A stretch of DNA of 64,000 nt from a bacterium. GTDB taxonomy: Bacteria; Patescibacteriota; Andersenbacteria; UBA10190. The translations under genes were made by a program, and so were the position numbers. The notes under the pieces were generated by a model, which saw only the letters and a list, made by a program, of their open reading frames with translations, did no database searches and was not told the DNA's origin. Location: positions 5,483-69,482 of the forward strand of contig NZCO01000007.1 in the NCBI GenBank assembly GCA_002686445.1, in the 5' to 3' direction. Positions 284 through 21,090 of this stretch are shown here, in pieces. The first letter of the stretch is position 1. Every line of letters begins with the position of its first letter.

Positions 284-2947
284 GTGATCTATTACACGCG
301 TATGAGCACTGCTTTTAAAGTGGGAAGTATCCTATTCATCGTCGTCCTCTTCGGGGGCGTTGTTTTGGCGCAAGCCGTTTCAGTACAGATAGAAGGGGTT
401 AGACATGTTGCCTACACAACTAATGCCGAGGAGCTGACTGCCAATCGTCTGGTTGGACAGACGTTTGTTTCCCCAAAAAAGAATCTGTCGGGCATAGGTG
501 TGTTATTCGCCACCTATTCTGGTAGGACTAACACACAGCAAGTTGAGCTCCATGTGCGTGCTTCGATCACTGACACTACGGACCTGCGGGTAGTGACGGC
601 TGATCCACGAGACTTTGGCGACAATCAGACGTACCGATTTACCTTTGACCCAATTCCGGAGAGCGATGGCGTGACTTTCTTTTTCTACGTGGTTTCTCCT
701 GGCAGTTCACCAGGTGACGCAGTCACCGTTGATCTTGATACCAGGGATCCGTATCACCTCGGCACTGCATTCTTGGTGCGCGGGCCACCCGAACTATTAA
801 ATCAGCCAACGGCGCTTGAGTTTGGCGGTAAGCAGACAATTGATGTGGCCTTTAGTACCTACCACACCGTCCCCGTTCGCACGGCGATCTTAGCGAGAGC
901 AGAGGGCGCGGCCAAGACATTCGTAGGCACCTTCTCCGAGCGACAAGGGGAGTACGGCCTATGGCTGAAGCTGACTGGGCCGGTGCTGGTCATATTGTTG
1001 CTGATGTGGGGCTTGAGTCGAGCGAACATAGAAAGCCGCCTGACCAAACCGCGAATTCTTATGGTGCTGGCGGCTTTAGTGATAGCCGGGTTCATCTGGC
1101 GCCTGTTTTATGCGGTTGATCTACCATTGACCAACGACGAAGGTAATTACCTCTACGACGCCTTTGCCCTACGCCAGGGTGTCTTAGCCGGTGGCGATGG
1201 GTACGTAAAGGCGCCGCTAGTTATAGGCTGGGTTGCACTGTGGCAAATGCTACTGGGTAACAGCATTATAGCCGCGCGCGTCGCGTCGATTGTGGTGGCG
1301 GTCTTGACCGCTGTACCGCTGTACGGCCTAGGTAAAAGCTTCGCTAATAAGCGCGCGGGATTGATGGTTGCGGCGCTGTGGCTACTGGCGGGAGCACCAG
1401 CGGTGTTTGGCATCTACGTTCACACCCAGGCCCTAGCGGTGCTGCTGGGCACTAGTGGCATAGCCCTACTGTGGGCCACACTACGCCAAGACAAACCAGT
1501 GCCCTGGAAATTCGTCATAGCCGGTGTGCTACTGGGGTTGGGTGTTGCGTCACGTAAAAGTGTGCTGGCCTTAGGGCTCCTACCACTCGTCTTTATTCTG
1601 CTCGAGTCTCCGTCATGGCGCCTGCGCGGACAGCGATTGCTCTTTACCGGACTCGGATTCGTTGCCGTGCTATTCATTCTGCTGGGTTATGCGGGCGCGC
1701 TCTACGGCGGGGAAGGGTTGCGGGAAGTAATTGGTTTGAACTCTGCAGAAGACGGGATCACCGCGGTGAACCCAGACGAGATAGAGCAGACACGCGCCTA
1801 TTCAATTCGAGGAGTCACGCCGTTCTTCCGCGAGGCATTCTCCCTGCTGGCGCTGGCGCTCATGGGTTGGGGTTTGGTGCTCGAGCGCACGACGCGTCGC
1901 ATAGTTGGTCTATTCGTCGTGGCGAAGCCGTCCAGGTATGTGCTGTGGCTAGTTGATCATTTGTTGCCTAAAATTGCATGGGTCTTCCCCCTGATCAGTC
2001 TCTGGGTGGCTTGGCAGTTCTTCTTTGAATACGAAGGTGAGATATACCACCGCTTTGGTGGCATGACTGGCCTGTGGTACACGGCTCTCCTACTTATGTT
2101 AGTGGTGCTACTGTGGCCGCGTGGTTCACGAGACGCGTTGCGGTTTACGGAAGCACCTATGGTGCCGGCTAGCACACAGCCGGTCCCATCGCGACTAGGC
2201 AGTATCAAGCCTGGGCCAGGAGAGGCTCTGCTGCACACTGAGCCGGTAGGGAAATTGCTCGCAGCCAGTCTGCTCTTACCGCTGTGGTTTGGCGGACTGT
2301 ATCTCTTCTATACCAACTGGATAAAGTTTCACGCGAATTACATAGTTGAATTTCTGGTGCCGGCCGTCATCTTGGGCGGGGTAGGTGCTGTGTATGTAGC
2401 TGCTCGACTGACGGACATTACTGGCTTTGGAGATCGACTGATACTGCTGGGAGTGTGGTTGCGGCGAGTGAGCGTCATCCTACTGTCCGCGTGGCTATTC
2501 TGGGGACTATACCTTAATAGCTACATTACGCGGACGGTGCCACATACCGGCACCTTTGATCAGGGAGCAGTCCAAGAAGCAGCGGACTGGTTGAGCCAGA
2601 ATGTCCCTGAGGACGAGACGCTGTTTACCGGTGCCGCGGCTATCCCCTACGTCGCTGAACGTCGCATCGCGCTCGATATTGCGCATCCACGATGGTATGC
2701 CTATGAATTCACTCGCAAAAACACGCCTCGCCTGAACACCTTCCTGCCCCCGATCGAGGAAATGCTACATGCGTATCGGACTGCTAATTGGTTCTTGCTT
2801 GATAAGCAGACAGGGTTCTCGTTCCTGATGGAATATAGCGAAATAGAGGCGGGTCTGGAGACTGACTGGCAGAAAGTACACGCCATTGAGAATGGCTCAA
2901 ATACGCTAACCTTTTACCGACGAACGCAGCCGTCTATCGAATTATAG
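284..2947 (+). CDS. GT-C fold membrane glycosyltransferase (ArnT/PMT GT39/83-like) with an N-terminal extracytoplasmic beta-rich module
   Basis: 887 aa. N-terminal hydrophobic anchor or signal (ILFIVVLFGGVVLAQA), then a ~95-aa module (VGQTFVSP...SPGSSPGDAVTV) shared with ORFs 7179 and 9200. Many TM helices follow, with a DEGNYLYDAF motif in the first loop (GT-C DE motif), and a ~180-aa C-terminal soluble domain. The GTG start at 284 versus ATG at 302 is ambiguous. Confidence 0.55.
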   Translation: MIYYTRMSTAFKVGSILFIVVLFGGVVLAQAVSVQIEGVRHVAYTTNAEELTANRLVGQTFVSPKKNLSGIGVLFATYSGRTNTQQVELHVRASITDTTDLRVVTADPRDFGDNQTYRFTFDPIPESDGVTFFFYVVSPGSSPGDAVTVDLDTRDPYHLGTAFLVRGPPELLNQPTALEFGGKQTIDVAFSTYHTVPVRTAILARAEGAAKTFVGTFSERQGEYGLWLKLTGPVLVILLLMWGLSRANIESRLTKPRILMVLAALVIAGFIWRLFYAVDLPLTNDEGNYLYDAFALRQGVLAGGDGYVKAPLVIGWVALWQMLLGNSIIAARVASIVVAVLTAVPLYGLGKSFANKRAGLMVAALWLLAGAPAVFGIYVHTQALAVLLGTSGIALLWATLRQDKPVPWKFVIAGVLLGLGVASRKSVLALGLLPLVFILLESPSWRLRGQRLLFTGLGFVAVLFILLGYAGALYGGEGLREVIGLNSAEDGITAVNPDEIEQTRAYSIRGVTPFFREAFSLLALALMGWGLVLERTTRRIVGLFVVAKPSRYVLWLVDHLLPKIAWVFPLISLWVAWQFFFEYEGEIYHRFGGMTGLWYTALLLMLVVLLWPRGSRDALRFTEAPMVPASTQPVPSRLGSIKPGPGEALLHTEPVGKLLAASLLLPLWFGGLYLFYTNWIKFHANYIVEFLVPAVILGGVGAVYVAARLTDITGFGDRLILLGVWLRRVSVILLSAWLFWGLYLNSYITRTVPHTGTFDQGAVQEAADWLSQNVPEDETLFTGAAAIPYVAERRIALDIAHPRWYAYEFTRKNTPRLNTFLPPIEEMLHAYRTANWFLLDKQTGFSFLMEYSEIEAGLETDWQKVHAIENGSNTLTFYRRTQPSIEL

Positions 2948-2960
2948 GGGTTCAGCGTCG

Positions 2961-3068
2961 GTGAATTGACAAAAGCACCTAATCATTGGCACTATAACAA
3001 CGCTTTAACGAGCGCAGTTAATAGGTACGTTACCAATTAAAAATAGACGTCTCGCAAGGAGCAATTAC
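2961..3068 (+). promoter_or_regulatory. Conserved upstream element, copy 1: TTGACA box, identical 21-bp core, second conserved block and SD
   Basis: TTGACA at 2966-2971. The 21-bp core TTGGCACTATAACAACGCTTT at 2986-3006 is identical to 3678-3698. A second conserved block GGTACGTTACCAA lies at 3024-3036. SD AAGGAGCA sits at 3056-3063, 5 nt before the ATG at 3069. Confidence 0.5.
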
Positions 3069-3626
3069 ATGTATGAACGCTTTACTGACCGCGCTCGCAA
3101 AGTTATGCAGCTGGCCCATCAAGAAGCGCTGCGGATGAATTTTGAGTACATCGGCACAGAGCACGTCCTGCTCGGATTGATTAAAGAGGGTTCGGGTGTT
3201 GCAGCACATGTGCTCAAGAATTTCGACATGGGCCTGCTCAATGTTCGCCAACAGATTGAGAAGCTCCTTGGGGCCGCACCTGCTGACAGGGTCGTGATAG
3301 GCAAGCTGCCGATGACACCGCGCGCCAAGCGGCTTCTCACATTCGCCGCGGCGGAAGCCCGCAATCTAGGGCACAACTGCGTCGGCACCGAACACCTGCT
3401 CTTGGCTCTAACACGATTAGATCAGTCTGTTGCTTGTCACGTCTGGCTCAGCCTAGGACATCGAATTGAGGATGTGCGCAGTGAAGTGTTCCATATGCTT
3501 GACTGTGATGATACTGCAGTGCTACCGGTTGAAACGTATTCCACTACGCGCGTTATCTACGTTGTGGACACGCACACGGTTGTGTCAGGCTGGTGGAACT
3601 GGCTCTACAGAGTTGTTATTGGCTAA
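3069..3626 (+). CDS. Standalone Clp N-terminal domain (Clp_N repeat) protein, no AAA+ module
   Basis: MYERFTDRARKVMQLAHQEALRMNFEYIGTEHVLLGLIKEGSGVAAHVLKNF... is a canonical ClpC/ClpB N-domain repeat 1 (ERFT..A..V...A..EA..L.H.YIGTEHLLLGL). The second half-repeat (LPMTPRAKRLLTFAAAEARNLGHNCVGTEHLLLAL) is more degenerate. It is followed by an atypical aromatic/hydrophobic tail. No Walker motifs are present. Confidence 0.8.
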   Translation: MYERFTDRARKVMQLAHQEALRMNFEYIGTEHVLLGLIKEGSGVAAHVLKNFDMGLLNVRQQIEKLLGAAPADRVVIGKLPMTPRAKRLLTFAAAEARNLGHNCVGTEHLLLALTRLDQSVACHVWLSLGHRIEDVRSEVFHMLDCDDTAVLPVETYSTTRVIYVVDTHTVVSGWWNWLYRVVIG

Positions 3627-3654
3627 TTAGAACCGTTCACGTTGTGGGCGGTTT

Positions 3655-3760
3655 TTAATTGACGAAACGCCCTAAAATTGGCACTATAACAACGCTTTTG
3701 AAGCACCATTAATTCGTACGTTACCAACAAAACATATTCGTTTAGGCAAGGAGCACTGAC
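3655..3760 (+). promoter_or_regulatory. Conserved upstream element, copy 2 (duplicate of 2961-3068)
   Basis: TTGACG at 3659-3664. Identical 21-bp core at 3678-3698. CGTACGTTACCAA at 3715-3727. SD AAGGAGCA at 3748-3755, 5 nt before the ATG at 3761. Confidence 0.5.
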
Positions 3761-4870
3761 ATGTATGAACGCTTTACGGATCGAGCTCGCAAGACCATGC
3801 AGCTGGCCAATCAAGAAGCACAGCGGTATAACCATGAGTACATTGGCACTGAGCATATTTTGCTTGGCTTAGCCAAGGAAGCCTCAGGCGTCGCGGCTAA
3901 TGTGCTCAAGAATCTAGATGTTGACCCAAGGGTGATTGTGCGTGAGGTTGGAAAACTCCTGCTTTCTGGGCCCGACATGGGGGTCACTATGGGCAAGCTA
4001 CCTCAGACCCCCAGGGCCAAGAAAGTCGTTGAGTTTTCCATGGATGAAGCACGCAACCTTCGTCACCATTACGTGGGGACCGAGCATATCTTGCTTGGAT
4101 TACTTCGTGAACTGGAAGGCGTTGCCGCTCAGGTACTGATCAATTTGGGTCTGCAGCTTGAGGCTGTCAGGGAAGAAACACTGAGTCTTTTGGGTGAGGG
4201 CGACCGCGGCCAGTCGTTGCGCGAGCTAGCGGCGGAAGCAGATTTGCCGTCTACTGCGGAGCTGGTCTACGAGCACACTCGTGTCGTCTTCGCAGTGACT
4301 CCGGTTAAGATCGACTGGCTAAGTTGGCTGCGCTCGCGTCGGATAGGGATCAGCTTGCTCGGACTAACTCGGTACTTGTCGTTTTCAGCGGGCTCGACCG
4401 CTGCCAGTAACGAACCCACAGGTCCGCCCAAGGAGAGCGATCAGGTAACGGCTGTGTGGCGCGAGGCAAACACTTTTGCGAAGGCGCAAAGGCGAGAATA
4501 CTTGGCTCCAGCAGACCTTCTCTATGGTGTCGCGGTTTGGGCCACAGATCCGCTGAGAGTGGTGTTGCGCGAGTATAACATCAAGACCGGACCAGTCAGA
4601 GCGGCGGTTGAACTTGCTGTGGGTCTCGGAACTGCTGAGTTCACTATGACCACTCTGCCCAAAACGCCTAACGCCAGGGCGATTCGCAAGGCGATGTGTG
4701 ACAGGGCAGCTGCAGCCGGTAGCGCTGAGGTTACGCTCCTTCATCTGGTCGAAGCATTGCTCGAAGAGCATGATGACGATCTATATCGGGTGATGATTCA
4801 AATCGGATCCCTACCAGAGCACCTAGCCGCGGAGATCCACCAGCGAGTGAGATTGGCGCAGCCCGCCTAA
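3761..4870 (+). CDS. Tandem-Clp_N protein: two complete Clp N-domain double repeats, no ATPase
   Basis: 369 aa. Residues 1-145 form a ClpC-like N-domain (MYERFTDRARKTMQLANQEAQRYNHEYIGTEHILLGL...LPQTPRAKKVVEFSMDEARNLRHHYVGTEHILLGLL). Residues ~230-360 form a second Clp_N-like unit (AVWREANTFAKAQRREYLAPADLLYGV...LPKTPNARAIRKAMCDRAAAAGSAEVTLLHLVEALL). No Walker A/B motifs. Confidence 0.8.
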   Translation: MYERFTDRARKTMQLANQEAQRYNHEYIGTEHILLGLAKEASGVAANVLKNLDVDPRVIVREVGKLLLSGPDMGVTMGKLPQTPRAKKVVEFSMDEARNLRHHYVGTEHILLGLLRELEGVAAQVLINLGLQLEAVREETLSLLGEGDRGQSLRELAAEADLPSTAELVYEHTRVVFAVTPVKIDWLSWLRSRRIGISLLGLTRYLSFSAGSTAASNEPTGPPKESDQVTAVWREANTFAKAQRREYLAPADLLYGVAVWATDPLRVVLREYNIKTGPVRAAVELAVGLGTAEFTMTTLPKTPNARAIRKAMCDRAAAAGSAEVTLLHLVEALLEEHDDDLYRVMIQIGSLPEHLAAEIHQRVRLAQPA

Positions 4871-7126
4871 CTATATGCCGTTTGCTTTTGCAAGCGGTTT
4901 TTTTCTTACCACCAATGCGACGCAGGCCAGTGCGGAGATAGTGCTTACAACAATTCCGAGAGCGAGCGGCCGAGGGCGATAGTGCATCTGCACTAGATGT
5001 GTACCCGGGGGAACATCAATCGAACGGAAGAAAGGATCGACCTGGTTAATAGTTGCTGGCTGACCATCAATGGTGGCCTGCCAGCCTGGGTACCAGGTAT
5101 CACGAACCAGCAATTCGCCCGCGGTATCAGTAGTGACGTCGAGTCGCACGTGCGCCGGTGATACTTGTTTGTAGGTAACCGGGGTAATGACCTCCGGCGT
5201 AATAAGCTCGGCGCGAGGGTAGGTACCGTTTACGTAGATGGTCCCGGCTGCTAATTCGTTTGCCGAGCCGTAGTATGTGCGCATTGTCTCGTCTTCGACT
5301 ACGACGGCGGCGATGTTAAGTTCAGTGACCAAGGTGCCGAAGACTGGTGTGGTCAGACTACTACGCAGTGCTTCGAGCTGCTGACTATGCACAGTCATTG
5401 GCAGAGACGCCGGCCACTCAATGCCCGGCAGACCAAATTGGGCGTATGTAAGCGGGCCTAGTAGTTCTCGATTGCTCCTATCTGCTGCGGGTCGTCGTGA
5501 GGCAGGGTTAGTTAGCAGTAATCCCGTGTCACCACCCTCGCGTCGGAAGGTGGCGATGCGCGCGCGTCCGGCCCTAACTGAGTCCGGGACTTGCTCAAGC
5601 GCCGCGGGCGGCGCTAACAGCGTTTGCCATGAAACCGCTGGGCTGGTGAGCGAAGCAATGATGATGAGCTCGGCTACGGCAATTGCAGTAACGACCCGCC
5701 GTTGCCGATACAGGAGAGCGGCTAAGCCAAGCGTTACCAGGGGCAAGAACGTGAACGGTGAGCGCCAGCTAAGCGCGGAAGTCTGTAGGCTGATTACCAA
5801 CTGCTCAAGTTTATCGATGTAGTAGGCGGGAGACCTGCCAGAAACCAACTCTGGGGCTCGCTCCTGTATAGCCTGGTAGGCTAACGCAGCACCGTTGTCA
5901 GGAACTAACCACAGGCCAACATTGTAGAGCACGACCACCGCCAAGATAGCGACAAAGCCGACTCGCAAGTAGCGCCGCAGAAGCGCAGGCGTTCGTTGCA
6001 GATTATCAAACGCATGTGCGGCCAGTAGCGCACCAGCAAAGGTAGTAAACAATAGCCAGCGAGCGGGGGCGGAAAATAGCCACAGCGACGGCTCGAATCC
6101 CAGTAACCGGAACGGGGACAGATTTCCTAGGGCAAGCAAGAAGGATACGAGCAGCAGTACCCACCAGAATCGCAATTGTCGTCTAATTCTCCAGGCCGCG
6201 GCTGCAAGCAGCAGCGGCAAGGTGCCAATAAAGAAACCATATTCAATCTCGAGCCGTTTACCCCAATACGCTGCATCCGTATCAAAGAAGCGCGGGAATA
6301 CGGCAGTCGGTAGATGATATAGCGGCCAGCTATGTTGGTTCGCCTGCGTCAGATCGAAGTCACCGCCCCCGCGATCAGACAGCCGGGTCAGCTCTGCTGT
6401 CGGCAGGAGCTGTGCAGAGGCTAAGCCAACTGCAAGCACTACAGCCAATAAGAAAACAAGGAGCAAGCGATGCCAGGGGAGACGATTCACCCAGCGCTGG
6501 TGGAACAAATACAGGGCCGTGATACCAGCGGTCATTAGGGGGGTTTGGATGTGACCGGCGAGGAAGGGCAGACCGAAAACAAGAGCTAGTAAGGCAAGGT
6601 GACGCGCGCGTGGCCGCGAAGCGCGAGCGACCGACTGGGCAACCAGCAACTGCCACGGTAGCCAACTCAACACAATAATGATGTTGAAATGAGTGGCGTG
6701 TTGCCATACGAATTGACTCAAGGCAAAAGCGCAGGCGCCGAGTATGGCGGCGAGTGCACTTACGCGTTGGGCGCGCAGTAGCAGATAGGTACCGGCGGCG
6801 GCTGCAAAAATATGTAGGTAAAACAGCGCCGGTAGATACAGCCAGATCGGGAACAGGCGACCAATGAGTAGTAACGGATAAAAGAAGCCTAATTGCGCAG
6901 AGGCGAGCACGGGGAACCCCCAGGCAATGTCGGGATTCCAGGAGGGGAGTCGACCAGCCAGCTGTTCACTCTGGAAGAAGGTCTCCAGGGGAATATACAC
7001 GTCGGCGGTGTCACCCGTGCCGTAGTATTGGCCAGCAAAAATTGGCGCAGCCGCCAACCCAATTACTACTGCCAGGATTACCAGCACGGCGAGGCGTTTC
7101 ATGCGATAATTGTAAGATGAAACCAC
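4871..7126 (-). CDS. YfhO-family-like polytopic membrane protein (GT-C-like glycosyltransferase)
   Basis: 751 aa. N-terminal region ...YIPLETFFQSEQLAGRLPSWNPDIAWGFPVLASAQLGFFYPLLL... is followed by more than 10 TM helices. The C-terminal soluble domain ends ...TWYPGWQATIDGQPATINQVDPFFRSIDVPPGTHLVQMHYRP, the characteristic YfhO C-terminal beta-domain pattern (W..W.a.vDG....i..v......v.v..G.H.v...Y). The start could be the internal Met at ~7102. Confidence 0.6.
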   Translation of the reverse strand: MVSSYNYRMKRLAVLVILAVVIGLAAAPIFAGQYYGTGDTADVYIPLETFFQSEQLAGRLPSWNPDIAWGFPVLASAQLGFFYPLLLIGRLFPIWLYLPALFYLHIFAAAAGTYLLLRAQRVSALAAILGACAFALSQFVWQHATHFNIIIVLSWLPWQLLVAQSVARASRPRARHLALLALVFGLPFLAGHIQTPLMTAGITALYLFHQRWVNRLPWHRLLLVFLLAVVLAVGLASAQLLPTAELTRLSDRGGGDFDLTQANQHSWPLYHLPTAVFPRFFDTDAAYWGKRLEIEYGFFIGTLPLLLAAAAWRIRRQLRFWWVLLLVSFLLALGNLSPFRLLGFEPSLWLFSAPARWLLFTTFAGALLAAHAFDNLQRTPALLRRYLRVGFVAILAVVVLYNVGLWLVPDNGAALAYQAIQERAPELVSGRSPAYYIDKLEQLVISLQTSALSWRSPFTFLPLVTLGLAALLYRQRRVVTAIAVAELIIIASLTSPAVSWQTLLAPPAALEQVPDSVRAGRARIATFRREGGDTGLLLTNPASRRPAADRSNRELLGPLTYAQFGLPGIEWPASLPMTVHSQQLEALRSSLTTPVFGTLVTELNIAAVVVEDETMRTYYGSANELAAGTIYVNGTYPRAELITPEVITPVTYKQVSPAHVRLDVTTDTAGELLVRDTWYPGWQATIDGQPATINQVDPFFRSIDVPPGTHLVQMHYRPRPLALGIVVSTISALACVALVVRKKPLAKANGI
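4878..4904 (+). terminator. Intrinsic terminator for the plus-strand Clp_N gene, embedded in the 3' coding end of the convergent minus-strand gene
   Basis: CCGTTTGC-tttt-GCAAGCGG hairpin (7/8 bp) at 4878-4897, followed by TTTTTTT at 4898-4904. The stop codons of the two convergent genes abut (TAA at 4868-4870, CTA/TAG at 4871-4873). Confidence 0.5.
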
Positions 7127-7178
7127 ATATGAAGCCCAGGCTTTACAGATGGGCTAACATCCGTACTGTAAGGAAAAT

Positions 7179-9203
7179 ATGACGGTATCGAAGCAAATTA
7201 TAGCCACCGTATTATTGGGTTTATTGGCTTTTAGCCTGCGTTTTCCCGGCGCAGGCTCATTTACGACAGTTGATGAGTTTAATTGGATGGGACGCAGTCA
7301 AACCTTTTGGCACGAGCTATTCTACGACCGGGACATAGGAGGCACGTTTGTCACCAGTCACCCTGGAGCTACGGCCACGTGGTTGGCCGGTGCAGGTATC
7401 TTTTGGCAAGAAAATCAGTTGGGCCAAGAGTTTAGTGCCAACAACGTGGCCCATTTCCGACGCTACGCCACCGCGCCAATTGTGCTGACTATCGCCGTTC
7501 TGATTGCTGTGGTTACAGCGCTGGCCATTAGCGTCTTTGGTTTAGTGCCGGGAATTATCACTGGGCTCATCTTGGCAACTGAACCGTATCTGATCGGGAT
7601 GGGACAAGTGGTGCATTTGGATATGTTGCAGGCCTTGTTCATGCTCACCGCGCTGCTGGGCGTCTTACGCATGCGCGTCGACAAACATCGCAAATGGATT
7701 TGGTTGGTGGGCGTTATGTTTGGTCTCGCACTGGCTACCAAGATGGTGTTGGCATTGTGGCTACTACCATTCATTGGCTGGCCCTTGGTTACTGCGTTGG
7801 CCCTTCGTCGAGGGCGAAACGCGATTATCGTAGAAGTTAAACGAGTATTCACTATTATCGTGCTGGGAGTAGTAGCGCTGGCTATACTTTGGCCAGCCTT
7901 GCTCGCGCAACCTGATTTCCAGCTGGGGTATATCTCACGGGATACCGGGAGCGTGATCACTCAAGAACATGTCGCCCTGTCAGCGGGTAGCGACCCGATC
8001 GCTCCTTGGACATTCTATGCGCGTACGTTCCTGGCTCGTAGTTCACTACTTGTCCTCGCTGGTACTCTGGCGGCTGTGCTCGTGCTCGCCTATCGTCGCC
8101 AAAAATCATGGCAGTGGCACGACATAGGCACAGTTTTACTCTATTTATTGGGCTATCTTATTGCGATTAGTTTTGCGGCCAAAAAGGCTGATCGCTATGC
8201 CCTGCCTGCCCTGGCTGCATTGCCGCTGCTCGTTGGCTGGGTAGTTGCCTTATTACTGCCGATAGCGACCGTTCGTATTAAGCAGTTACGTACTGCCAAG
8301 CAAACCACCGTAGTGGCGATTGGCGCTATTTTGGTTATTGGTCTGGCGAGCGCTTGGCTCTGGCTGCCACACGCAATTGCGTACAATAACCCGCTGTTCC
8401 CTGACCTGCGCTCACGGTCACAGCAGGGCTGGGGAGAAGGCCTTGAGGATGCGGCTGCTTGGCTCAATCAATTGCCGGATGCTGAACAGATTCGTGTCGC
8501 CTCCTGGTATCAGTCTGCCTTTCGCGCTCACTTCAATGGATTAACCACCTCGTTGTCCGCGCGTGATGATTATCGCGTTACCTACCTCGTGACGTATCGC
8601 AACATGGGCGGTCGCGCGGGGGATACGCTCGCCAGCGATGTGCTTGATGAGTTTAAGAACCAAACACCCGTTCATGTGGTGAGCATCCGGGGACTAGAAT
8701 ATGCCTGGATATATAAGCTGAATAATGTGGGTGAATATATCAAGACAGCAGGAGAATTAACTACCGGGGTGGAGCACGGTCAAACTATTACTGTTGAGGA
8801 CGACGGCTGGAGCTTCATGGAGATCGGCTTTGCTACCTATGGTGACCGGGCAAATACAGAAGATGTGCTGGTGCATATCAGACAGAGCATCGCTGATACC
8901 AGAGATATTCGAACCATACGGATACCGGTTGCGGATATCATCGATAATAAGTGGCACGAGATTGAGTTTGAGGAAATCCAAGATAGCGGTAACAAGACAT
9001 ACTACGTCGCTATTACCAGTCCTACAGCAACGGCGGGGAACGCGATCACCACTCGATACACCGATTCCGACATTCAGTCGGGCCAGCTGTTCATTCGTCG
9101 GCATGCTCGCCGGTTAGGAGAAGACCAAGCCCAGTATCTGCGTGCGGGAGACTTAGCTGTCCGCGTGCCGTACTGGCAGTTTATTACGCACGATACGCAA
9201 TGA
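7179..9203 (+). CDS. GT-C fold membrane glycosyltransferase (ArnT/PMT-like) with C-terminal soluble domains, paralog A
   Basis: 674 aa. N-terminal TM, then FTTVDEFNWMGRSQTFWHE (DE motif loop), then ~12 TM helices. The C-terminal region contains the conserved block QQGWGEGLEDAAAWLNQLPDAEQIRVASWYQSAF...YLVTYRNMGG...EYAWIYK (shared with 9200 and 21091) and the ~95-aa beta-module (GQTITVEDD...ITSPTATAGNAITTRY). Its end overlaps the start of the next gene by 4 nt. Confidence 0.6.
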   Translation: MTVSKQIIATVLLGLLAFSLRFPGAGSFTTVDEFNWMGRSQTFWHELFYDRDIGGTFVTSHPGATATWLAGAGIFWQENQLGQEFSANNVAHFRRYATAPIVLTIAVLIAVVTALAISVFGLVPGIITGLILATEPYLIGMGQVVHLDMLQALFMLTALLGVLRMRVDKHRKWIWLVGVMFGLALATKMVLALWLLPFIGWPLVTALALRRGRNAIIVEVKRVFTIIVLGVVALAILWPALLAQPDFQLGYISRDTGSVITQEHVALSAGSDPIAPWTFYARTFLARSSLLVLAGTLAAVLVLAYRRQKSWQWHDIGTVLLYLLGYLIAISFAAKKADRYALPALAALPLLVGWVVALLLPIATVRIKQLRTAKQTTVVAIGAILVIGLASAWLWLPHAIAYNNPLFPDLRSRSQQGWGEGLEDAAAWLNQLPDAEQIRVASWYQSAFRAHFNGLTTSLSARDDYRVTYLVTYRNMGGRAGDTLASDVLDEFKNQTPVHVVSIRGLEYAWIYKLNNVGEYIKTAGELTTGVEHGQTITVEDDGWSFMEIGFATYGDRANTEDVLVHIRQSIADTRDIRTIRIPVADIIDNKWHEIEFEEIQDSGNKTYYVAITSPTATAGNAITTRYTDSDIQSGQLFIRRHARRLGEDQAQYLRAGDLAVRVPYWQFITHDTQ

Positions 9204-11170
9204 AGAGGTCGATCGGCGTTTTTATCGTCCTGGCGATCACGCTCGTAGCCCTGGTCGTTCGGTTGCCGGGGTTGGGAACGTTTATGACTGTCGACGAAGA
9301 ATCCTGGATGCTACGCAGCGGTGAGTTTTGGCACAAACTCGTACAACAAGGTGATCCAGGAGGGACGTTCTTGACTACGCATCCCGGAGCCACCACTATG
9401 TGGTTGGCGGGTGCGGGAATCGCGGCGCAGGAAGCGCGCCTAGGTTTTAACATCGATACGTCGAACTTACGACACTTCCGACTAGCGGCGACCTTGCCCA
9501 TTGCGATTGCCACCTCGCTGCTTATCGGGCTGATAACGCTGTGGCTCGTTCCTGTTATAGGTAAGCCGCAGGCGATAGGAGGCGGCGTGGTGCTGGCTAC
9601 AGCTCCCTTTTTGACGGGTCTGAGTCAAATTGTGCACCTTGATGCCTTGTTGGCTTTGTGTATGGTCGGCAGTCTGGTCTGTTGGTTAGGCTTTATGCAT
9701 GATGGACGATGGTCTCGCGCTATCGGCGCTAGCGTTTTAGCAGGCCTGGCGCTGGTTACGAAGTTCATAGTAGCGAGCTGGCTTGTTCCCGTGCTGGGAC
9801 TCATCGCGCTATGGCACGTACGTCGGGACCTTGCATCATTCTGGCCCTGGTTGGTTCGTGTGGTTGGTTTGGCGCTGGGCATCACGGTGTTGACTGCCTT
9901 CATAGCCTGGCCGGCACTATGGGAAAAAACTGACCTGACTGCATCGTTTGAACGAGACATCGCAAACGTGGTCACGCAGGAGCACACTGCATTAGAAATC
10001 AGTCGTGACCCGATTGCCCCAGCTAGTTTCTACCTGCGTACCGTGGCCGGGCGGGTACCGATCCACACGTTATTACTACTGGCCGCTGCAGTTGTTGTGT
10101 CAGTTCGAGCTTTGCGACAGCGCCAGGGAAAGAGCGCGCCACTTGTCTGGTTCCTGATATATGCAATTGGTTTCTTAGTCCTTCTCACATTTGCAGCAAA
10201 GAAGGCTGACCGCTATGCGCTGCCGGCGCTGGCTGCCTTCTCGGTGCTCGCCGGTTGGCTTGGGACCGCGGGCTGGTTACATCTTGCAGCCCGCTTTGGT
10301 TGGACAGCTCGCTGGCGCAGTATCAGCGCCGGAATACTCGTTCTCCTACTGGTGGCCGTCCCGCTGCTCATCTCTCCGCATGCCAGCGCCTATATGACAC
10401 CATTCGGGCGATCCGTACTGCCACTGCCGCAGCAAGGCTGGGGACAGGGTCTGGAACAGGCAGCTACTTGGCTCAATACGCACCCGCTGGCTGATCAAGT
10501 ACGCGTCGCGTCCTGGTATCCGTCAGTCATGCGTGCCTACTTTAACGGGGAAACGTTTAGCTTAAGCTCTCGCCATGATGATCGCGTTAGCTATATCGTT
10601 ACCTACCGCAACATGGAGGGTAGGGAGCAAGACGACATAGCCAGCAACGTATTGGACGAACTGGTAGAGCGCCTACCAGTGCATGTGGTGAACGTGAATA
10701 ACGTTCCCTACGCCTGGATTTATAAAACAGACAGTCTGGTACTGTATGACCGAAACATTGGAGAGCTGACTAATGACGTACTAGTAGGGCAAACGTTCAC
10801 ATCGCCAACAGCCTCACTGAGTGCAATCGATATAGGCTTTGCTACTTTTAGCAGCAGGGCTAATACACAGGACGTGATCGTAACTTTGTACAATGGTATT
10901 GGCGGAGAGACGCTGCGAACAGTGGTAACTTCGGCAACCGATATTGAGGATCGTTCTTGGCACCGCTTTAGCTTCGAGCCACTTACTGTGGAGGCGAGTA
11001 GGGAGCTATATATCACCGTGACTAGCCCGACGTCCACGCCGGGTGATGCGGTGACGGTATTGTATGCCAATGCGGATATTGCTTCAGGTTCGATGCAGCA
11101 GCAGCGTGCTGCAACGAGTGAACTAAAGACATCACTAGGCGCTGATATTGCCTACCGGCTGTACCCGTAA
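9200..11170 (+). CDS. GT-C fold membrane glycosyltransferase (ArnT/PMT-like), paralog B
   Basis: 656 aa, collinear with 7179-9203: FMTVDEESWMLRSGEFWHKL, many TM helices, QQGWGQGLEQAATWLNTHPLADQVRVASWYPSVMRAYFNG...YIVTYRNMEG...PYAWIYK, then the beta-module VGQTFTSPTASLSAIDIGFATFSSRANTQDV...TSPTSTPGDAVTVLY. Confidence 0.6.
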   Translation: MKRSIGVFIVLAITLVALVVRLPGLGTFMTVDEESWMLRSGEFWHKLVQQGDPGGTFLTTHPGATTMWLAGAGIAAQEARLGFNIDTSNLRHFRLAATLPIAIATSLLIGLITLWLVPVIGKPQAIGGGVVLATAPFLTGLSQIVHLDALLALCMVGSLVCWLGFMHDGRWSRAIGASVLAGLALVTKFIVASWLVPVLGLIALWHVRRDLASFWPWLVRVVGLALGITVLTAFIAWPALWEKTDLTASFERDIANVVTQEHTALEISRDPIAPASFYLRTVAGRVPIHTLLLLAAAVVVSVRALRQRQGKSAPLVWFLIYAIGFLVLLTFAAKKADRYALPALAAFSVLAGWLGTAGWLHLAARFGWTARWRSISAGILVLLLVAVPLLISPHASAYMTPFGRSVLPLPQQGWGQGLEQAATWLNTHPLADQVRVASWYPSVMRAYFNGETFSLSSRHDDRVSYIVTYRNMEGREQDDIASNVLDELVERLPVHVVNVNNVPYAWIYKTDSLVLYDRNIGELTNDVLVGQTFTSPTASLSAIDIGFATFSSRANTQDVIVTLYNGIGGETLRTVVTSATDIEDRSWHRFSFEPLTVEASRELYITVTSPTSTPGDAVTVLYANADIASGSMQQQRAATSELKTSLGADIAYRLYP

Positions 11171-11193
11171 ACTTTCCACAATAAAACCATTGC

Positions 11194-11208
11194 GGCCAAT
11201 AATTGGCC
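11194..11208. promoter_or_regulatory. Perfect 15-bp palindrome GGCCAATAATTGGCC upstream of orphan gene 11282
   Basis: Read directly from sequence, about 75 nt upstream of the ATG at 11282. SD AAGGAGAAGAGG immediately precedes the start. Confidence 0.4.
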
Positions 11209-11281
11209 TGGTAAACTGCTAAACGGCCTTGAAGCAGGGTGCACATTTCACTTGGACATTCGTCCATAAGGAGAAGAGGCA

Positions 11282-12289
11282 ATGGATGTGACGCAGCTTT
11301 TAGAGCGACCGAGTCGTAGTACTTCCAGGGTGACCAGGAATCGTTGGTCTAGTCGGAGGCATACAGCGAAGGATCGCCGTCCGACGACGATTGGGTTTGG
11401 CGACATGCAGTTTGCCACCGTGCAAGGTGCCGTCGACGCGTTTGAGTATCCGCTGGTAGGGATCGCCCACCAGGACATCAGCGTGCCGAAGGCAAGCGCG
11501 ATGGCCACGCTGCGCGAAGCACTGCTGCAACGCTACACGGGACCAGAGTGTTGGCGTGGACTGTGGTGGTTAACGTGTCGTAACCAGCCCGCTTTGTTCG
11601 ACCAGTACACGGTGGTTACTATGCCCAAGCCAAGCAACGCGATCGTGGCTGGCAATCATGTGTTCCAGATGGAGTGGAACGCAACTGGAGTTGACGCTCG
11701 CGACATGCACAGTCTGCGTCCTGACCAGCGTGGTCAGGTGCATGGTGCTATCAATGATGGGAAGCTTCGTTTTCCGGTCAATGAGTTCGACCATGTCCTC
11801 ATGCGACCCGTCTTTGCCGAAAATAACGGTCGGCTGGGCGCGTTAATGAGTGTGGCTGCCGTGCAGCGCGAAGCGCAGCGAATGGAAAGCGCGTTGCACA
11901 ACTTCTGTTACTACCAAGGACCGTTTATCAGGATGGCCCGAGGTACTCGTTCCGCCTGGTCGTACTCGCGCAACTTAGTGGGTCGTCTGGGAGTGGAGTC
12001 GTTGGAAGCCGCCGAGTTTATTGGCATGACAGTTTCTGACATTAGCGAAGCACGTATTCAGAGACGCATGCGCATGTTGGCTCGCATGATGGACCCACGG
12101 GAATATCTCTGGGACCCAATCTGGGCCGTGAGCATCCCGCAGTGGCGACCAGCACAAGGTGGCAGGCGCTGTCCCCTTGTCTACGGCCGCCGCCGGATCG
12201 ACTACTTGTGCCGAGTCGTGCACTGGATAGACGACTGGTTCAACGTCGCGACCATCCGCACCGCAGACGAACTGGCGGGCGTCGCCTAA
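11282..12289 (+). CDS. Hypothetical protein with Arg-rich N-terminus; no recognisable family
   Basis: 335 aa ORF with a strong SD (AAGGAGAAGAGG) and its own downstream terminator. The N-terminus RPSRSTSRVTRNRWSSRRHTAKDRRP is highly basic. No TM segments, no motif I recognise. Confidence 0.5.
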   Translation: MDVTQLLERPSRSTSRVTRNRWSSRRHTAKDRRPTTIGFGDMQFATVQGAVDAFEYPLVGIAHQDISVPKASAMATLREALLQRYTGPECWRGLWWLTCRNQPALFDQYTVVTMPKPSNAIVAGNHVFQMEWNATGVDARDMHSLRPDQRGQVHGAINDGKLRFPVNEFDHVLMRPVFAENNGRLGALMSVAAVQREAQRMESALHNFCYYQGPFIRMARGTRSAWSYSRNLVGRLGVESLEAAEFIGMTVSDISEARIQRRMRMLARMMDPREYLWDPIWAVSIPQWRPAQGGRRCPLVYGRRRIDYLCRVVHWIDDWFNVATIRTADELAGVA

Positions 12290-12295
12290 GCTCTT

Positions 12296-12332
12296 GCCCC
12301 CGTATCTCTACCGAGAAACGGGGTCTTTTTTT
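12296..12332 (+). terminator. Rho-independent terminator after 11282-12289
   Basis: CCCCGT(a)TCTC-tacc-GAGA(a)ACGGGG extended hairpin at 12298-12323, followed by TCTTTTTTT at 12324-12332. Confidence 0.65.
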
Positions 12333-12386
12333 GCCACGTAGACGGCTCGACCAACGACTGAGCCGTTTATCGGCTATACTGACCGG

Positions 12387-13823
12387 GTGAAGCTGCAAGA
12401 GCTGCTTAAAGGCAAGAGTGTATTTCTGATAATGTTTATCGCGTTTCTTGTCGCGAATGGCGCGTACTTACATCGCGTGCCGGGCTTAATGGGAGACGAA
12501 GCATCGGAAGGTGAAAATGTGTTTGAGTTACTACAGAGCGAGACGATTACCCTAACCGGCGAGCGTTCATACATTGGCCCGGCCCCAGACTACCTGCGCG
12601 TACCCTTTATCGCGGCCTTTGGGTACTCAGCCCTTGCACTACGAATACCACTGTATCTAGCTAGCATAGCCACGTTTTTACTAACATGGAGTATTTTTCG
12701 GCGCCTATTATCCAAAGAAACGGCGCTGCTGGTTCTCGCAGTGGCCTTCTTCTCGCCCACCTACTTAAGCTACCAGCGACTAGGGTGGGCTATTACCCTC
12801 TTTCCCTTATTTGCTGTACTGATTATCTGGTTACTGATGAGCCACTGGCGGCACCGTGCCGTACTAGCGGGATTCGTCGCCGGTATCGGATTACACACAC
12901 ATATTATGTTCCTGCCGACGCTCGCGGCCATCGCGGCAGTCTGGGTTGTCGTTGAACTGGTGCGCTCCGGCGCGATTCGTGAACGTACAAAGCGGGTCTT
13001 AGCTTGGTGGCCAGCCATTATCGGTTTTTGGGCCGCCTTTGCTACCCAGTTCGTGATCCTGCTGCAATTTACTGATGACCAAGGTGATCCGGGCGCCGTG
13101 GGGGAGCTGATCAGCGATCGCTTTAAGGACTTGCCGGACATCTTACCACTTGTCATCTCAGGCTCATCGTACGTGGCGCGCTACACTGGCCTCGAATTCG
13201 CCCCGGGTATTTTGCTCACCGTGACTGGTATCGTTCTGGCCCTGAGTGTATTGGGGCTCGTTCTGGGTAAACACAGAAAAATCGCGTGGCTCTGGTTGTT
13301 GGGAATAGCTATGCACTTGGTAGTGCTGATGTACATGATAGACCGGTTTACCCTCCGCTATTTCGTGATCTTCGTGCTCGGACTGTGGTTGCTGGCTGCC
13401 ATTGGGCTGGGGGTTGCAATGGCCAAGCTACCAGATCGCTGGCGTCAGTTTACGCCGCTGGTCGTGGCGCTCGCACTCCTGCTGTGGTCAGCGGCAGCAA
13501 TGCTTGCGCCGTTTTTGCGCACTGGCGGCAGTGTGGCTGATTTCTCACTCGGCAATCGCACGAATAGTGCGGCTGCGCTCGTTGACACCAGGCCGCTGGT
13601 GACGTGTCTACGAGGGGCTGGTTCAGTTACCAGTGAAGGCGTTCATATCTTCAATCGACTGCAATACTTCAGTCACCAGTACAGCAACCTTGAAGTCTTA
13701 CCAGAAACCCAAAAAAATACCGCAGACTTTCTCGTGCACTATCGGCAGGAAGGTAGCCCCGAGGTTTCTGCGAAGCAGGAGTTGTGCCCCGACCTCAACC
13801 ACTTTATTGTCGAGCGCAGATAA
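12387..13823 (+). CDS. GT-C fold membrane glycosyltransferase (ArnT/PMT-like), shorter paralog without large C-terminal domain
   Basis: 478 aa. GTG start. N-terminal TM, then loop RVPGLMGDEASEGENVFELL (DE motif), then ~11 TM helices, with the R/K-rich loops typical of GT39/83-like enzymes. Confidence 0.5.
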   Translation: MKLQELLKGKSVFLIMFIAFLVANGAYLHRVPGLMGDEASEGENVFELLQSETITLTGERSYIGPAPDYLRVPFIAAFGYSALALRIPLYLASIATFLLTWSIFRRLLSKETALLVLAVAFFSPTYLSYQRLGWAITLFPLFAVLIIWLLMSHWRHRAVLAGFVAGIGLHTHIMFLPTLAAIAAVWVVVELVRSGAIRERTKRVLAWWPAIIGFWAAFATQFVILLQFTDDQGDPGAVGELISDRFKDLPDILPLVISGSSYVARYTGLEFAPGILLTVTGIVLALSVLGLVLGKHRKIAWLWLLGIAMHLVVLMYMIDRFTLRYFVIFVLGLWLLAAIGLGVAMAKLPDRWRQFTPLVVALALLLWSAAAMLAPFLRTGGSVADFSLGNRTNSAAALVDTRPLVTCLRGAGSVTSEGVHIFNRLQYFSHQYSNLEVLPETQKNTADFLVHYRQEGSPEVSAKQELCPDLNHFIVERR

Positions 13824-13827
13824 CTAA

Positions 13828-15678
13828 CTACTTCCCGAGGTTGCTAATTCGCGGGTAGATCAGGAGTCCCACCGCCAGCAGGAGGGCTAAGAGGGTGACC
13901 ATCTGCCCAAAGACAAAGCCGGGAGGCGCATAGGTAAAAGTGAGCGTGTGTGATCCGGCTGGGATGGTGATGGCCAGTTGATTTTTTATCTCGATAGCGG
14001 GATTCCCGTTTACTTCCCAGCCTCGAGCGTAATTCGCGTTTACCATAACGTCAGTCGACTCAACGGAGGCGACTTGTGCCACAATCTTATCTGGCTCCCA
14101 GCGCAGCAACGTGGCGGTGCCATCCGGCGACCGTGTGCGCACCAGAGCTTGTGGTTCCTCGGTCTGTTCGACAGTCGCGACGGATGGAGGTGCTCCCAAA
14201 ACCGTGCAGTATGCTTGTGTGCCGTAGTTGGCCAGAGTCGCTGCGTAGGCGCGGCTGTGGTCTACGCCATCCTCATCACGAATTTCGTATCGGGCAAAGG
14301 TGTGTTGCAGTGGTTCTTGCGCAGTAGTAGCACTGACCGTAGGCAGAACGGTAAACGCCTGTTCTGAAAGGGGCTGCGTCAGGCTGCCCAGGTCAGTAGC
14401 CACAACACCTAGGGCGATAACGGCGACGATGCTCGGGATCACTACGTTGAGCTTATACTTTGGTGAAATGACGCTAGCTAGTAGTTGGCGCAGCCTGTCT
14501 AAGCCAATACCGGCTAACAGCGCTAGTGGTAACACCGTGAACAACACTAGGCGAGACACGTTTGAACGGGGTAAGAAAGATGCCTGGTCGAAGAGCGGCT
14601 TTAAGAGCGGGCCCGATGAGGAAATAGCGATTGCGATCAGACCAGCCACGAGCAGCAGTTTGATTACACGTGACCGCTTTATTCGGGTGAGCGCTAAGGC
14701 CGCGAGCGCTAGTACAAGTGGCCCCACATACGCGCCGTACTCGTGCCAGCCACTTCCCTGATTGGGAATGACCTCACTGCCGTGCAAATACCGACCGAGG
14801 AATATTTCTGGCAGGGATGTGAGAGTGGACGCTGAGCTGGCGTAGGACTGGTCCTGAAATTGCGTTAGCCACAGCAGTACGGGAACAAGCTTGAGCGCCG
14901 CTAAGCTTAGGCCCCACACGCCGGCCGTCACCGTTACACGCAGTGCGTCCACTCGTCGCCGTACCACAGCCAGGAGGAAGATAAACGCTCCAGCCGTATA
15001 CATAAGCAAATAAATGCCACCTTGTAGGAACGTTGCGGCTAAGAGCACACCAGTTAGTAAAGACCAAAGCCGTGAGTGCCGTCTATTACCGTTACTGCTT
15101 TGATACGCAGCCAGCCAGCTCCAGAAAATCCACGGGATGTACATGACCGCGAATACATTGGGGTGGCCCTCCACCAGCTCGAGAATAGTGACGCTGCCGA
15201 AGCTAAAGGCGAGAGCGGCGAGTAATCCAGCTAGTGCCGATAACTTGAGCCGATGCGCGAGCGCCAGCATGCCTAAGGCCCCGATGGCCGTGGTCACCAT
15301 TGCGGCCAACCGCAGCCCAAACGGTACGCCGTAGAGGAGCTCAAGTAAGAACGTCGGTGTGAAGAACGGAAACTCGGGGTCGCCGACGGCGGTGGTGCCA
15401 CCACAGATGTATGGGTTCCAGGTGGGGACGGTGCCGTACGTTAGCGTCAGGTCACGTACGACCTCGTGGTAGGAGAAGTAATAATCCCAGTCGGAAATTC
15501 CCCACTGCCCGTTCGGTAAAAAACCGACCAACATGATGGGAGTAACAATAATGAGAAGTAGGCCGGCCACTACCCAGCGGTAGCGAGGCAATAGTGCTAC
15601 GAGCAGAGCGCCTAAGGCGACTACGACGCCAACAGTTAGTGCGAGCGGAGTTAGTAAGTCGATCCAGGGTGAAACCAT
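13828..15678 (-). CDS. YfhO-like polytopic membrane protein
   Basis: 616 aa. N-terminal region ...DWDYYFSYHEVVRDLTLTYGTVPTWNPYICGGTTAVGDPEFPFF... is followed by many TM helices. The C-terminal domain ends YARGWEVNGNPAIEIKNQLAITIPAGSHTLTFTYAPPGF (YfhO-type beta-domain), then a C-terminal TM. Confidence 0.55.
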   Translation of the reverse strand: MVSPWIDLLTPLALTVGVVVALGALLVALLPRYRWVVAGLLLIIVTPIMLVGFLPNGQWGISDWDYYFSYHEVVRDLTLTYGTVPTWNPYICGGTTAVGDPEFPFFTPTFLLELLYGVPFGLRLAAMVTTAIGALGMLALAHRLKLSALAGLLAALAFSFGSVTILELVEGHPNVFAVMYIPWIFWSWLAAYQSSNGNRRHSRLWSLLTGVLLAATFLQGGIYLLMYTAGAFIFLLAVVRRRVDALRVTVTAGVWGLSLAALKLVPVLLWLTQFQDQSYASSASTLTSLPEIFLGRYLHGSEVIPNQGSGWHEYGAYVGPLVLALAALALTRIKRSRVIKLLLVAGLIAIAISSSGPLLKPLFDQASFLPRSNVSRLVLFTVLPLALLAGIGLDRLRQLLASVISPKYKLNVVIPSIVAVIALGVVATDLGSLTQPLSEQAFTVLPTVSATTAQEPLQHTFARYEIRDEDGVDHSRAYAATLANYGTQAYCTVLGAPPSVATVEQTEEPQALVRTRSPDGTATLLRWEPDKIVAQVASVESTDVMVNANYARGWEVNGNPAIEIKNQLAITIPAGSHTLTFTYAPPGFVFGQMVTLLALLLAVGLLIYPRISNLGK

Positions 15679-15716
15679 AGGAACAGTATCGCACTAGGCT
15701 GATCGCCAATCAACAA

Positions 15717-18554: not shown

Positions 18555-18634
18555 CTATACCACAGGAGTAAGAACCTATAGTATAGGGGGCTTGGGTACC
18601 TCCCAGGCCTTATCTACGACATACTACCTATATG
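18554..18634. promoter_or_regulatory. Divergent promoter region with CCTATA repeats and palindrome CCTATAgTATAGG
   Basis: CCTATACC at 18554-18561. Palindrome CCTATAGTATAGG at 18575-18587. CCTATA at 18627-18632 overlaps the asnB ATG at 18632. Confidence 0.3.
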
Positions 18635-20512: not shown

Positions 20513-20626
20513 CTCCTGCCTCATGACGTTCGCTACGCTCACTGCTCTCTCCTCACATGGAGACGAAGAAGACAGGGGAACCCTGATTTTCTTCGCGACA
20601 TTTTAATTCTGCCGATACGACACACT

Positions 20627-21037: not shown

Positions 21038-21090
21038 TTTTTAGGCGCCCAATCCTTTTTCTTGCAAGTAGAGCTAGGCTGTCGAAAGAA

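Follow-up and report, generated by a model that had tools for sequence, protein, structure and literature searches.

A shared, predicted beta-sandwich module lies before the membrane core in one GT-C glycosyltransferase and after it in two others of an Andersenbacteria genome

GT-C glycosyltransferases, membrane enzymes with lipid-linked donors, build and decorate the glycans of the bacterial cell envelope, among them O-antigens, rhamnans, arabinans, teichoic acid decorations and S-layer glycans. How these enzymes select and hold a polymeric acceptor is, to our knowledge, mostly unknown. In ORF12 of Citrobacter youngae O1, the founding member of GT136, which belongs to an ABC-transporter-dependent pathway, a C-terminal beta-rich carbohydrate-binding module (CBM) binds the unmodified backbone of the O-polysaccharide (PMC11127046), and the C-terminal beta-rich domains of EmbC and AftD bind acceptor polysaccharide (PMC11127046, PMC3044687). 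The lactococcal protein WpsH, which consists of a signal peptide, an outside loop and a transmembrane (TM) helix, is a putative co-polymerase encoded beside the DUF2142 GT-C polymerase WpsI and the Wzx flippase WpsG (PMC12599335, PMC9574508). We analyzed a stretch of 64,000 nucleotides from an Andersenbacteria genome (contig NZCO01000007.1, positions 5,483 to 69,482 of the forward strand; hereafter the window, whose own numbering is used below), in which three GT-C genes, here termed ORFs A, B and C, share a beta-rich module.

ORF A (284..2947, plus strand) encodes 887 amino acids, with a module cassette at the N-terminus followed by a PMT_2-type GT-C glycosyltransferase. ORF B (7179..9203, plus strand; 674 amino acids) and ORF C (9200..11170, plus strand; 656 amino acids) each comprise a GT-C core (PMT/PMT_2 in ORF B), an alpha/beta domain (residues ~396–515 in ORF B) and a C-terminal module. 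ORFs B and C are tandem paralogs over their full length (43% identity, E = 1e-149 by BLASTP), and the start of ORF C overlaps the stop of ORF B by 4 bp (9200..9203), which suggests that the two are translationally coupled. Composition-adjusted BLASTP aligns residues 42–149 of ORF A with residues 514–620 of ORF C (44% identity, E = 7e-21) and residues 44–171 of ORF A with residues 520–646 of ORF B (33% identity, E = 1e-17), as an earlier note on this DNA had claimed. Smith-Waterman scores of the modules lie 28.7–38.7 standard deviations above those of 1000 residue shuffles, so composition, the bias that the note itself had named as a possible source of the match, is not its cause.

Profiles built from 84 A-type and 24 B/C-type sequences were then compared with hhalign. 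The top match is the module (ORF A 38–207 with ORF C 505–656, probability 99.95%, E = 1.7e-38), and the second is the core, which is collinear (ORF A 253–855 with ORF C 2–492, probability 97.1%, E = 6.8e-11, 18% identity). The core alignment superposes the motifs TNDEGNY and TVDEESW, KFHANY and KKADRY, and the soluble alpha/beta domain. By this joint alignment of module and core, one module lies on opposite sides of a homologous GT-C core, preceding it in ORF A and following it in ORFs B and C. The modules, at 33–44% identity between ORF A and ORFs B and C, are far better conserved than the cores at 18%, and ORF A is only a remote relative of the other two. Of the shuffling among GT-C paralogs that the earlier note had envisaged, the permuted placement and the homologous cores therefore stand, but a local shuffle does not, given the 18% core identity of ORF A: the A-type and B/C-type architectures are old, widespread lineages. 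A recent duplication or gene conversion of the modules was likewise rejected, their identity being only 33–44%.

Multiple alignments and hidden Markov model (HMM) envelopes give the module an extent of ~150 amino acids; the ~95 first estimated correspond to its best-conserved first ~100 residues. Copy A spans residues 40–196 (401..871; HMM envelope, BLASTP and hhalign) and has ~11 strands in AlphaFold2 (AF2) models, copy B spans residues 516–668 (8724..9182; HMM envelope and BLASTP against ORF A), and copy C spans residues 512–656 (10733..11167; HMM envelope, BLASTP against ORF A and hhalign), all on the plus strand. Exactly these three copies were found in the window by tblastn and by an HMM search with --max. 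Toward its end the module contains a variable insert followed by conserved 'GD-l-a-f-x-x-Y' strands. An apparent second, degenerate copy in ORF A ('IDVAFSTY' at residues 186–193, compared with 'IDIGFATF') was rejected, because this stretch corresponds to the domain's own conserved last strand.

All three host proteins belong to the GT-C enzymes, as the earlier note had proposed; they are of the PMT_2 or GT39-GT83-like type, and the fold match is taken from the AF2 model of ORF A. Using a score above the curated gathering cut-off as the criterion, Pfam PMT_2 matches ORF A (33.8 bits) and ORF C (42.9 bits; cut-off 26.1 for both), and Pfam PMT matches ORF B (30.7 bits; cut-off 22.7), where PMT_2 scores 24.8, slightly under its cut-off. 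The full-length model of ORF A has a predicted local distance difference test score (pLDDT) of 92.5 and a predicted template-modelling score (pTM) of 0.92, and Foldseek matches it to STT3, PglB, AglB, ArnT (target-normalised TM-score, TMt, 0.52), DPY19, ALG9/12, Pmt4 and AftB with E values of 6e-7 to 6e-3. The TM core of ORF A (1040..2536, plus strand; residues 253–751) was delimited by hhalign and by the Foldseek matches to ArnT and STT3, and the C-terminal alpha/beta domain that follows it (2546..2944, plus strand; residues 755–887) by AF2 secondary structure and hhalign; the latter pairs ORF A 752–855 with ORF C 403–492, the alpha/beta domain located ahead of the module in ORFs B and C. An acidic D-E/DxD motif is present in the first extracytoplasmic loop after TM1 of all three enzymes. 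Within the core of ORF A it forms the catalytic-loop motif T-N-D285-E286-G-N-Y (1130–1150, plus strand), of which D285 and E286 are invariant in 84 A-type orthologs; in ORFs B and C it reads T-V-D32-E33 (D32-E33 at 7272–7277 and 9293–9298, respectively, plus strand), with a nearly invariant D32 across the B/C-type alignment.

Homologs of ORF A (n = 140, 38–57% identity) come mostly from Candidatus Andersenbacteria and are labelled 'glycosyltransferase family 39 protein' or 'ArnT-like'. Among full-length homologs the best reaches 57% identity, and the only database entry with 100% identity is a 151-amino-acid fragment (ORF A residues 7–157; window 284..736) from Tara Oceans station 037, mesopelagic, 0.1–0.22 µm fraction. 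These matches point to a marine, probably ultra-small (Patescibacteria-like) bacterium as the source of the DNA.

Several sequence features together give good support to an extracytoplasmic position of the module in all three enzymes, where the earlier note had also placed it. ORF A begins with a K/R-containing N-terminus and a signal anchor (308..376, plus strand; residues 9–31), recognized as an AF2 helix and hydropathy peak with K/R on its N-terminal side alone; the beta module (33–197) comes next, followed by a linker and return TM helix (875..1015, plus strand; residues 198–244), which AF2 resolves into an amphipathic helix at 198–216 and a TM helix at 221–244. The order continues with a K/R-rich loop (245–257), a TM helix at 255–279 and the D285-E286 loop; the loop at 242–257 holds four K/R. 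The D-E loop of GT-C enzymes faces outward. Thus the signal anchor, the return TM helix, the K/R-rich loop and the outward D285-E286 loop all indicate that the module of ORF A lies outside, and the extra 'return' helix would restore the N-in start of the GT-C core. Helix 9–31 could possibly be a cleavable signal peptide (LAQA / V), judging from an A-x-A site in the sequence. Stand-alone relatives of the module display the same anchor-module-TM layout as ORF A, several with a lipobox instead of the anchor, and in all of them the last TM helix is followed by a K/R-rich tail. The module of ORFs B and C comes after the domain homologous to the C-terminal domain of ORF A, and the corresponding C-terminal domain is periplasmic in ArnT and PglB, whose GT-C structures are solved. 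Hydropathy plots of ORFs B and C display 10 clear TM peaks (C-terminus inside), and a second peak hidden in 164–207 would bring the number to 11; because this topology is ambiguous, the outside placement in these two enzymes rests on homology to the GT-C structures and to the C-terminal domain of ORF A.

The AF2 model of the module, computed from a 9-sequence alignment, is an all-beta sandwich (pLDDT 78, pTM 0.80) of jelly-roll type, as the earlier note had suspected when it asked for a beta-sandwich. Its nearest Foldseek matches are the phage phi812 baseplate, the mycobacteriophage Douge central fibre, a PBCV-1 capsid protein and numerous minor-tail proteins of phages (query-normalised TM-score, TMq, 0.55–0.67; E 1e-5 to 1e-3), followed by CBM36, CBM6, CBM32, CBM35 and CBM61 (E ~1e-2). 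None of the three copies has a Pfam match at E ≤ 10, and neither the single sequences nor the profile match NCBIfam, PHROG or PDB sequences. No Pfam domain covers the module in 13 diverse family members, no Wzz match was found in the members scanned, and a tblastn search of 72,556 plasmids and 50,697 phage records returned no match to the module. The module is thus unnamed, as had been noted, and belongs to no CBM profile. By its predicted structure it shares a fold class with the glycan-recognition jelly rolls, outside every named family, and its earlier description as a candidate carbohydrate-binding domain stays at the level of a candidate. Six polar loop residues (E50, Q59, R81, N83, D113 and T148 in ORF A numbering) are 85–98% conserved in every architecture described below, which suggests a common ligand or structural site.

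The module can be compared with several known accessories of glycan-active proteins. GT136 ORF12 is a GT-C enzyme of ~650 amino acids with a ~150-residue beta-rich periplasmic C-terminal domain (residues 503–652), and ORFs B and C carry a module of the same size at the same position, probably also on the periplasmic side. By the published description, however, GT136 ORF12 has little similarity to other glycosyltransferase (GT) families and no alpha/beta domain, whereas ORFs B and C are PMT_2-type and possess one; N-terminal, split and tandem forms occur in the module family and are not described for GT136. The mycobacterial arabinosyltransferases EmbC, EmbA, EmbB and AftD also join a GT-C core to extracytoplasmic jelly rolls, which in the Emb proteins are lectin-like C-terminal CBMs and which promote chain extension (PMC3044687). 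Unlike these, the module profile has no PDB sequence match, although the PDB holds Emb and AftD entries, and the Emb/AftD domains are absent from the module's top 50 Foldseek matches; moreover, Emb/AftD modules are always fused, whereas the module family also occurs as separate genes. The MIR domain of the eukaryotic PMT O-mannosyltransferases (PMC7759382) likewise provides a PMT-family GT-C enzyme with a ligand-binding accessory on its luminal or extracytoplasmic face, but it is a beta-trefoil rather than a jelly roll, sits in a loop rather than forming a terminal module, and shows no sequence relation to the module in the Pfam search. With CBM6, CBM35, CBM36, CBM32, Wzt_C and the receptor-binding jelly rolls of phage tails, the module shares a general beta-sandwich class that serves glycan recognition on glycan-active proteins; it nevertheless has no profile match to CBM6/35/36/32/61, Wzt_C or F5/8-C, and the likeness is remote and structural.

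The family of the module is large: when 1.84 billion cluster representatives (50% identity) were scanned exhaustively with HMMER, 2,704 matched at E ≤ 1e-3, of which 1,040 reached E ≤ 1e-10 and 120 reached E ≤ 1e-30. Smaller yields came from a profile scan of genome contigs with a 3-sequence alignment (2 loci) and from a word-indexed homolog search, insensitive to the short module (10 matches, and 3 with a 41-sequence alignment). Six arrangements were read from the best 150 representatives and 74 metagenome loci. The first, that of ORF A, consists of a signal anchor, the module and a core of 8–14 TM helices (750–1267 amino acids); in the second, that of ORFs B and C, the module ends a protein with 7–12 TM helices (500–720 amino acids); and in the third it lies between a core of 10–12 TM helices, YfhO in some cases, and a final TM helix (940–1018 amino acids). 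Two to three tandem modules between two TM helices form the fourth arrangement, and a lone module between two TM helices (~210–250 amino acids) forms the fifth, which is the commonest. The sixth comprises proteins that lack TM helices and carry WsaF-like GT4 or S-adenosylmethionine (SAM)-methyltransferase domains, implying that the module also serves cytoplasmic enzymes of glycan synthesis. Large proteins of this kind with one module near the C-terminus occur at L049, L056 and L076 (~980–1000 amino acids) and at L065, L066, L080 and L050, and the related P0271 is a double GT4 (WsaF-like). All partners of the module are glycan enzymes: PMT_2, YfhO, unnamed cores with 5–12 TM helices, WsaF-like GT4 and SAM methyltransferases.

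In a neighbor-joining tree of 164 modules, computed without support values, ORF A falls in an N-type clade and ORFs B and C in an adjacent C-type clade, and each architecture appears in several separate clades. This scatter of architectures indicates repeated rearrangement. The family is known almost exclusively from uncultured Patescibacteria, Chloroflexota, Nitrospirota and Actinomycetota. Named carriers belong to Patescibacteria (Andersenbacteria and Saccharibacteria), Chloroflexota, Nitrospiraceae and Actinomycetota, and are annotated as hypothetical, GT39 or YfhO. Genes for N-type and C-type enzymes adjoin in one metagenome-assembled genome of Saccharibacteria, and in our window they lie at most 7 kb apart.

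Genes for stand-alone and tandem modules are located in polysaccharide loci, together with rhamnose genes, GT2, GT4, methyltransferases, ABC-2/Wzt or Wzx exporters and LPG_synthase_TM. In a first set of loci, obtained by exact protein look-up, a polytopic GT-C-like gene (PMT_2, DUF2142 or GT87-like) lies directly upstream on the same strand in 6 of 10, with spacings from an overlap to 103 bp, and in one more it lies one gene away, behind a secreted GH5-like protein. A second, independent set from the metagenome scan contains 34 non-redundant complete stand-alone or tandem genes, 22 of which have at least 1 kb of upstream DNA; 16 of these 22 are preceded on the same strand, at −26 to +93 bp, by a gene for a protein of 415–525 amino acids with 6–11 TM helices. 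Pfam assigned GT87 to seven of 17 upstream proteins, PIG-M mannosyltransferase to four, and DUF2142, PMT_2 and GH5 to one each, and the 11 downstream proteins include five Wzx-type flippases, two PMT-type proteins and one Wzt. At L048 (2247..8733), two successive pairs of a GT-C-like gene (7–8 TM helices) and a gene for a three-module protein are followed by a Wzx-type gene with 14 TM helices, so that here the whole two-gene unit is duplicated in tandem. This split and fused, 'Rosetta-stone' pattern marks the module protein as a functional partner of several GT-C families, and the most fitting view of ORF A is that a 'signal anchor – module – TM' cassette has been joined to the front of its GT-C core.

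Two further genes recur around the stand-alone modules. One encodes the secreted GH5-like protein (~490 amino acids, one TM helix), which is found directly upstream of module genes (L011 4485..5984, L007 1..987, L028 2373..3863 and L029 2294..3748), the L011 copy standing between the GT-C and module genes. The other is an MprF-flippase-like LPG_synthase_TM gene beside a GT2 gene (L007 3397..4419, L011 370..1359 and L013 1910..2887), a combination that suggests extracytoplasmic glycosylation systems composed of GT2, flippase and GT-C enzyme.

We propose that the module is an autonomous, exported jelly-roll accessory of ~150 residues that holds glycan at the active site of GT-C enzymes, a proposal to which we assign about an even chance. 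It is based on four observations taken together: the partners are glycan enzymes, the module appears to be exported, its predicted fold belongs to the jelly-roll class, and three of the enzymes are encoded in one glycan island. In this proposal the basic unit would be a signal anchor or lipoprotein signal, one to three modules, an amphipathic helix and a TM helix, usually encoded directly downstream of the GT-C gene. ORF A would have arisen by fusion of this cassette ahead of the core with the return TM helix kept, ORFs B and C by joining the module straight to the outward-facing C-terminal domain, and a third route of fusion would place it between the core and the last TM helix. The module would then sit on the outer face of the membrane next to the GT-C active site and bind the polysaccharide under decoration, extension or ligation, either as acceptor or as growing chain. 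Such holding would raise the local concentration of polymer and could confer processivity or control of chain length. Because the cores are divergent (18%) and the modules similar (33–44%), ORFs A, B and C may be three different transferases acting on one common envelope glycan. By analogy, the module would work most like the CBMs of GT136, EmbC and AftD, and possibly like WpsH.

Several points weigh against this proposal. In GT136 ORF12, the one precedent put to the test, the CBM is dispensable for activity when the enzyme is over-expressed (PMC11127046). The module has no sequence match to any CBM family, its structural likeness to CBMs is weak (TMq 0.35–0.45), and polar residues that are near-invariant across different GT-C families would be unexpected if each module bound its own acceptor glycan. 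The module is also present on the TM-less, presumably cytoplasmic GT4 and methyltransferase proteins, and one of the 10 loci of the first set has no GT-C gene nearby, the module gene being located between two GT4 paralogs.

An alternative, which we judge unlikely though not far-fetched, is that the module acts as a co-polymerase or chain-length regulator through protein contacts or oligomerization, not sugar binding. The stand-alone proteins would then be counterparts of WpsH, and in ORFs A–C the regulator would be part of the enzyme itself, in cis. The stand-alone proteins share the membrane layout of WpsH (signal peptide or TM helix, large outside loop, TM helix), and this layout was found next to a GT-C gene at L012, L010, L003 and L016 as well as in the 16 of 22 metagenome loci. 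Gene order agrees as well, with a GT-C gene (including DUF2142, at L012), the module gene and a Wzx flippase gene (L047, L051, L071 and L073) arranged as in wpsG-wpsH-wpsI (PMC12599335, PMC9574508). Arrays of one, two or three modules could serve as a ruler, and the pTM of 0.92 for the ORF A model is consistent with a module packed on the core. WpsH, however, is itself assigned its role by prediction; it has been likened to the alpha-helical Wzz, and the modules in the window are fused. Co-polymerases of the Wzz/PCP family have an alpha-helical periplasmic domain between two TM helices and a Pfam Wzz domain, whereas the module is all-beta and has no Pfam match. Partners as unrelated as PMT_2, YfhO, GT87-like and DUF2142 GT-C proteins argue against one conserved protein interface, as does the presence of the module on soluble GT4 and methyltransferase proteins against the regulator as a whole. 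A role in chain length or processivity may still be regarded as a serious variant of the glycan-holding idea, because the split form mirrors WpsH beside WpsI and WpsG.

A bolder form of that variant treats the module as a phylum-spanning 'fourth component' of GT-C systems, acting in trans as TM-module(1–3)-TM proteins or fused to the core on one side or the other, in which the E50/Q59/R81/N83/D113/T148 site would hold on to some feature that lipid-linked or nascent envelope glycans have in common and so form a processivity or co-polymerase clamp. We consider this improbable as it stands, if worth stating; were it true, it would give the WpsH-type 'co-polymerases' a molecular identity and a mechanism, and would found a new CBM family.

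It is distinctly less probable that the module binds an invariant ligand, such as the head group of a polyprenyl-(pyro)phosphate-sugar, a conserved primer sugar or a mediating metal ion. Whatever the architecture or partner family, the polar loop residues, with an invariant Arg among them, are 85–98% conserved, as would fit such a ligand, and stand-alone modules are tethered a few residues from the membrane on both sides; cytoplasmic and exported carriers would fit a lipid-linked intermediate present on both faces. But GT-C cores already hold a lipid-phosphate site, the C-type fusions put the module after a soluble domain of ~110 residues and not obviously at the membrane surface, and Foldseek turned up no similar fold that is known to bind lipid or phosphate. 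The conserved residues may instead form a structural Ca2+ site or hydrogen-bond network, as in many jelly rolls. More doubtful again is a passive structural, spacer or wall-contact domain without a specific ligand, which would shield or orient the enzyme, oligomerize, or contact the S-layer or peptidoglycan: beta-sandwich domains are often spacers and tandem arrays look stalk-like, but the strong conservation of the polar loop residues, the tight operon linkage to GT-C genes across phyla and the cytoplasmic carriers, where wall contact is impossible, all speak against it. Chance or compositional similarity without a true shared domain can be dismissed in view of the E values (7e-21, 1e-17 and 1.7e-38 by hhalign), shuffle z-scores of 29–39 and a family numbering in the thousands.

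A beta-sandwich, glycan-binding accessory on a GT-C enzyme is already established for EmbC, AftD and GT136, so the glycan-holding module proposed here extends that idea and comes as no surprise; what is added is the documented set of N-terminal, C-terminal, internal and split permutations. Recognition of this domain family, which is unannotated and numbers at least 2,700 clusters, would improve the annotation of proteins now called 'hypothetical' or plain 'GT39' and would flag pairs of GT-C and partner genes. For binding and structural work on how acceptors are recognized and chain length is controlled, the module offers a small soluble target.

The window as a whole is a large glycan-assembly island. 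Its part at 284..22563 has an unusual density of GT-C genes, eight in all, three of them with the module. Five are PMT_2-type, namely ORFs A (284..2947), B (7179..9203) and C (9200..11170) and those at 12387..13823 and 21091..22563 (the last on the minus strand), and three are YfhO/DUF6541-type (4871..7126, 13828..15678 and 15717..18554; minus strand). Wedged among them on the plus strand are two tandem paralogs (3069..3626 and 3761..4870; 185 and 369 amino acids, 49% identity, E = 1e-52), whose products consist of Clp_N repeats alone, without the AAA+ ATPase part. The rest of the window (23717..58646) is a very large glycan-assembly island with at least eight GT4, at least four GT2, five methyltransferases, three epimerase/dehydratases and an APH-like kinase; it includes a candidate EpsG-like polymerase (24997..26475) and a fused ABC exporter (28340..30208). 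Seven sizeable ORFs of the window, one of 704 amino acids, have no Pfam match at the thresholds used (among them 11282..12289, 23003..23692, 31249..33137, 34296..35441, 37812..38888 and 49406..51520). An AsnB-type glutamine amidotransferase gene is found inside the glycan island (18632..20512, plus strand), and an Asn_synthase gene (L006 2068..3825) lies near the two-module protein P0013 on a Nitrospiraceae contig; these locations may reflect amidation of a sugar.

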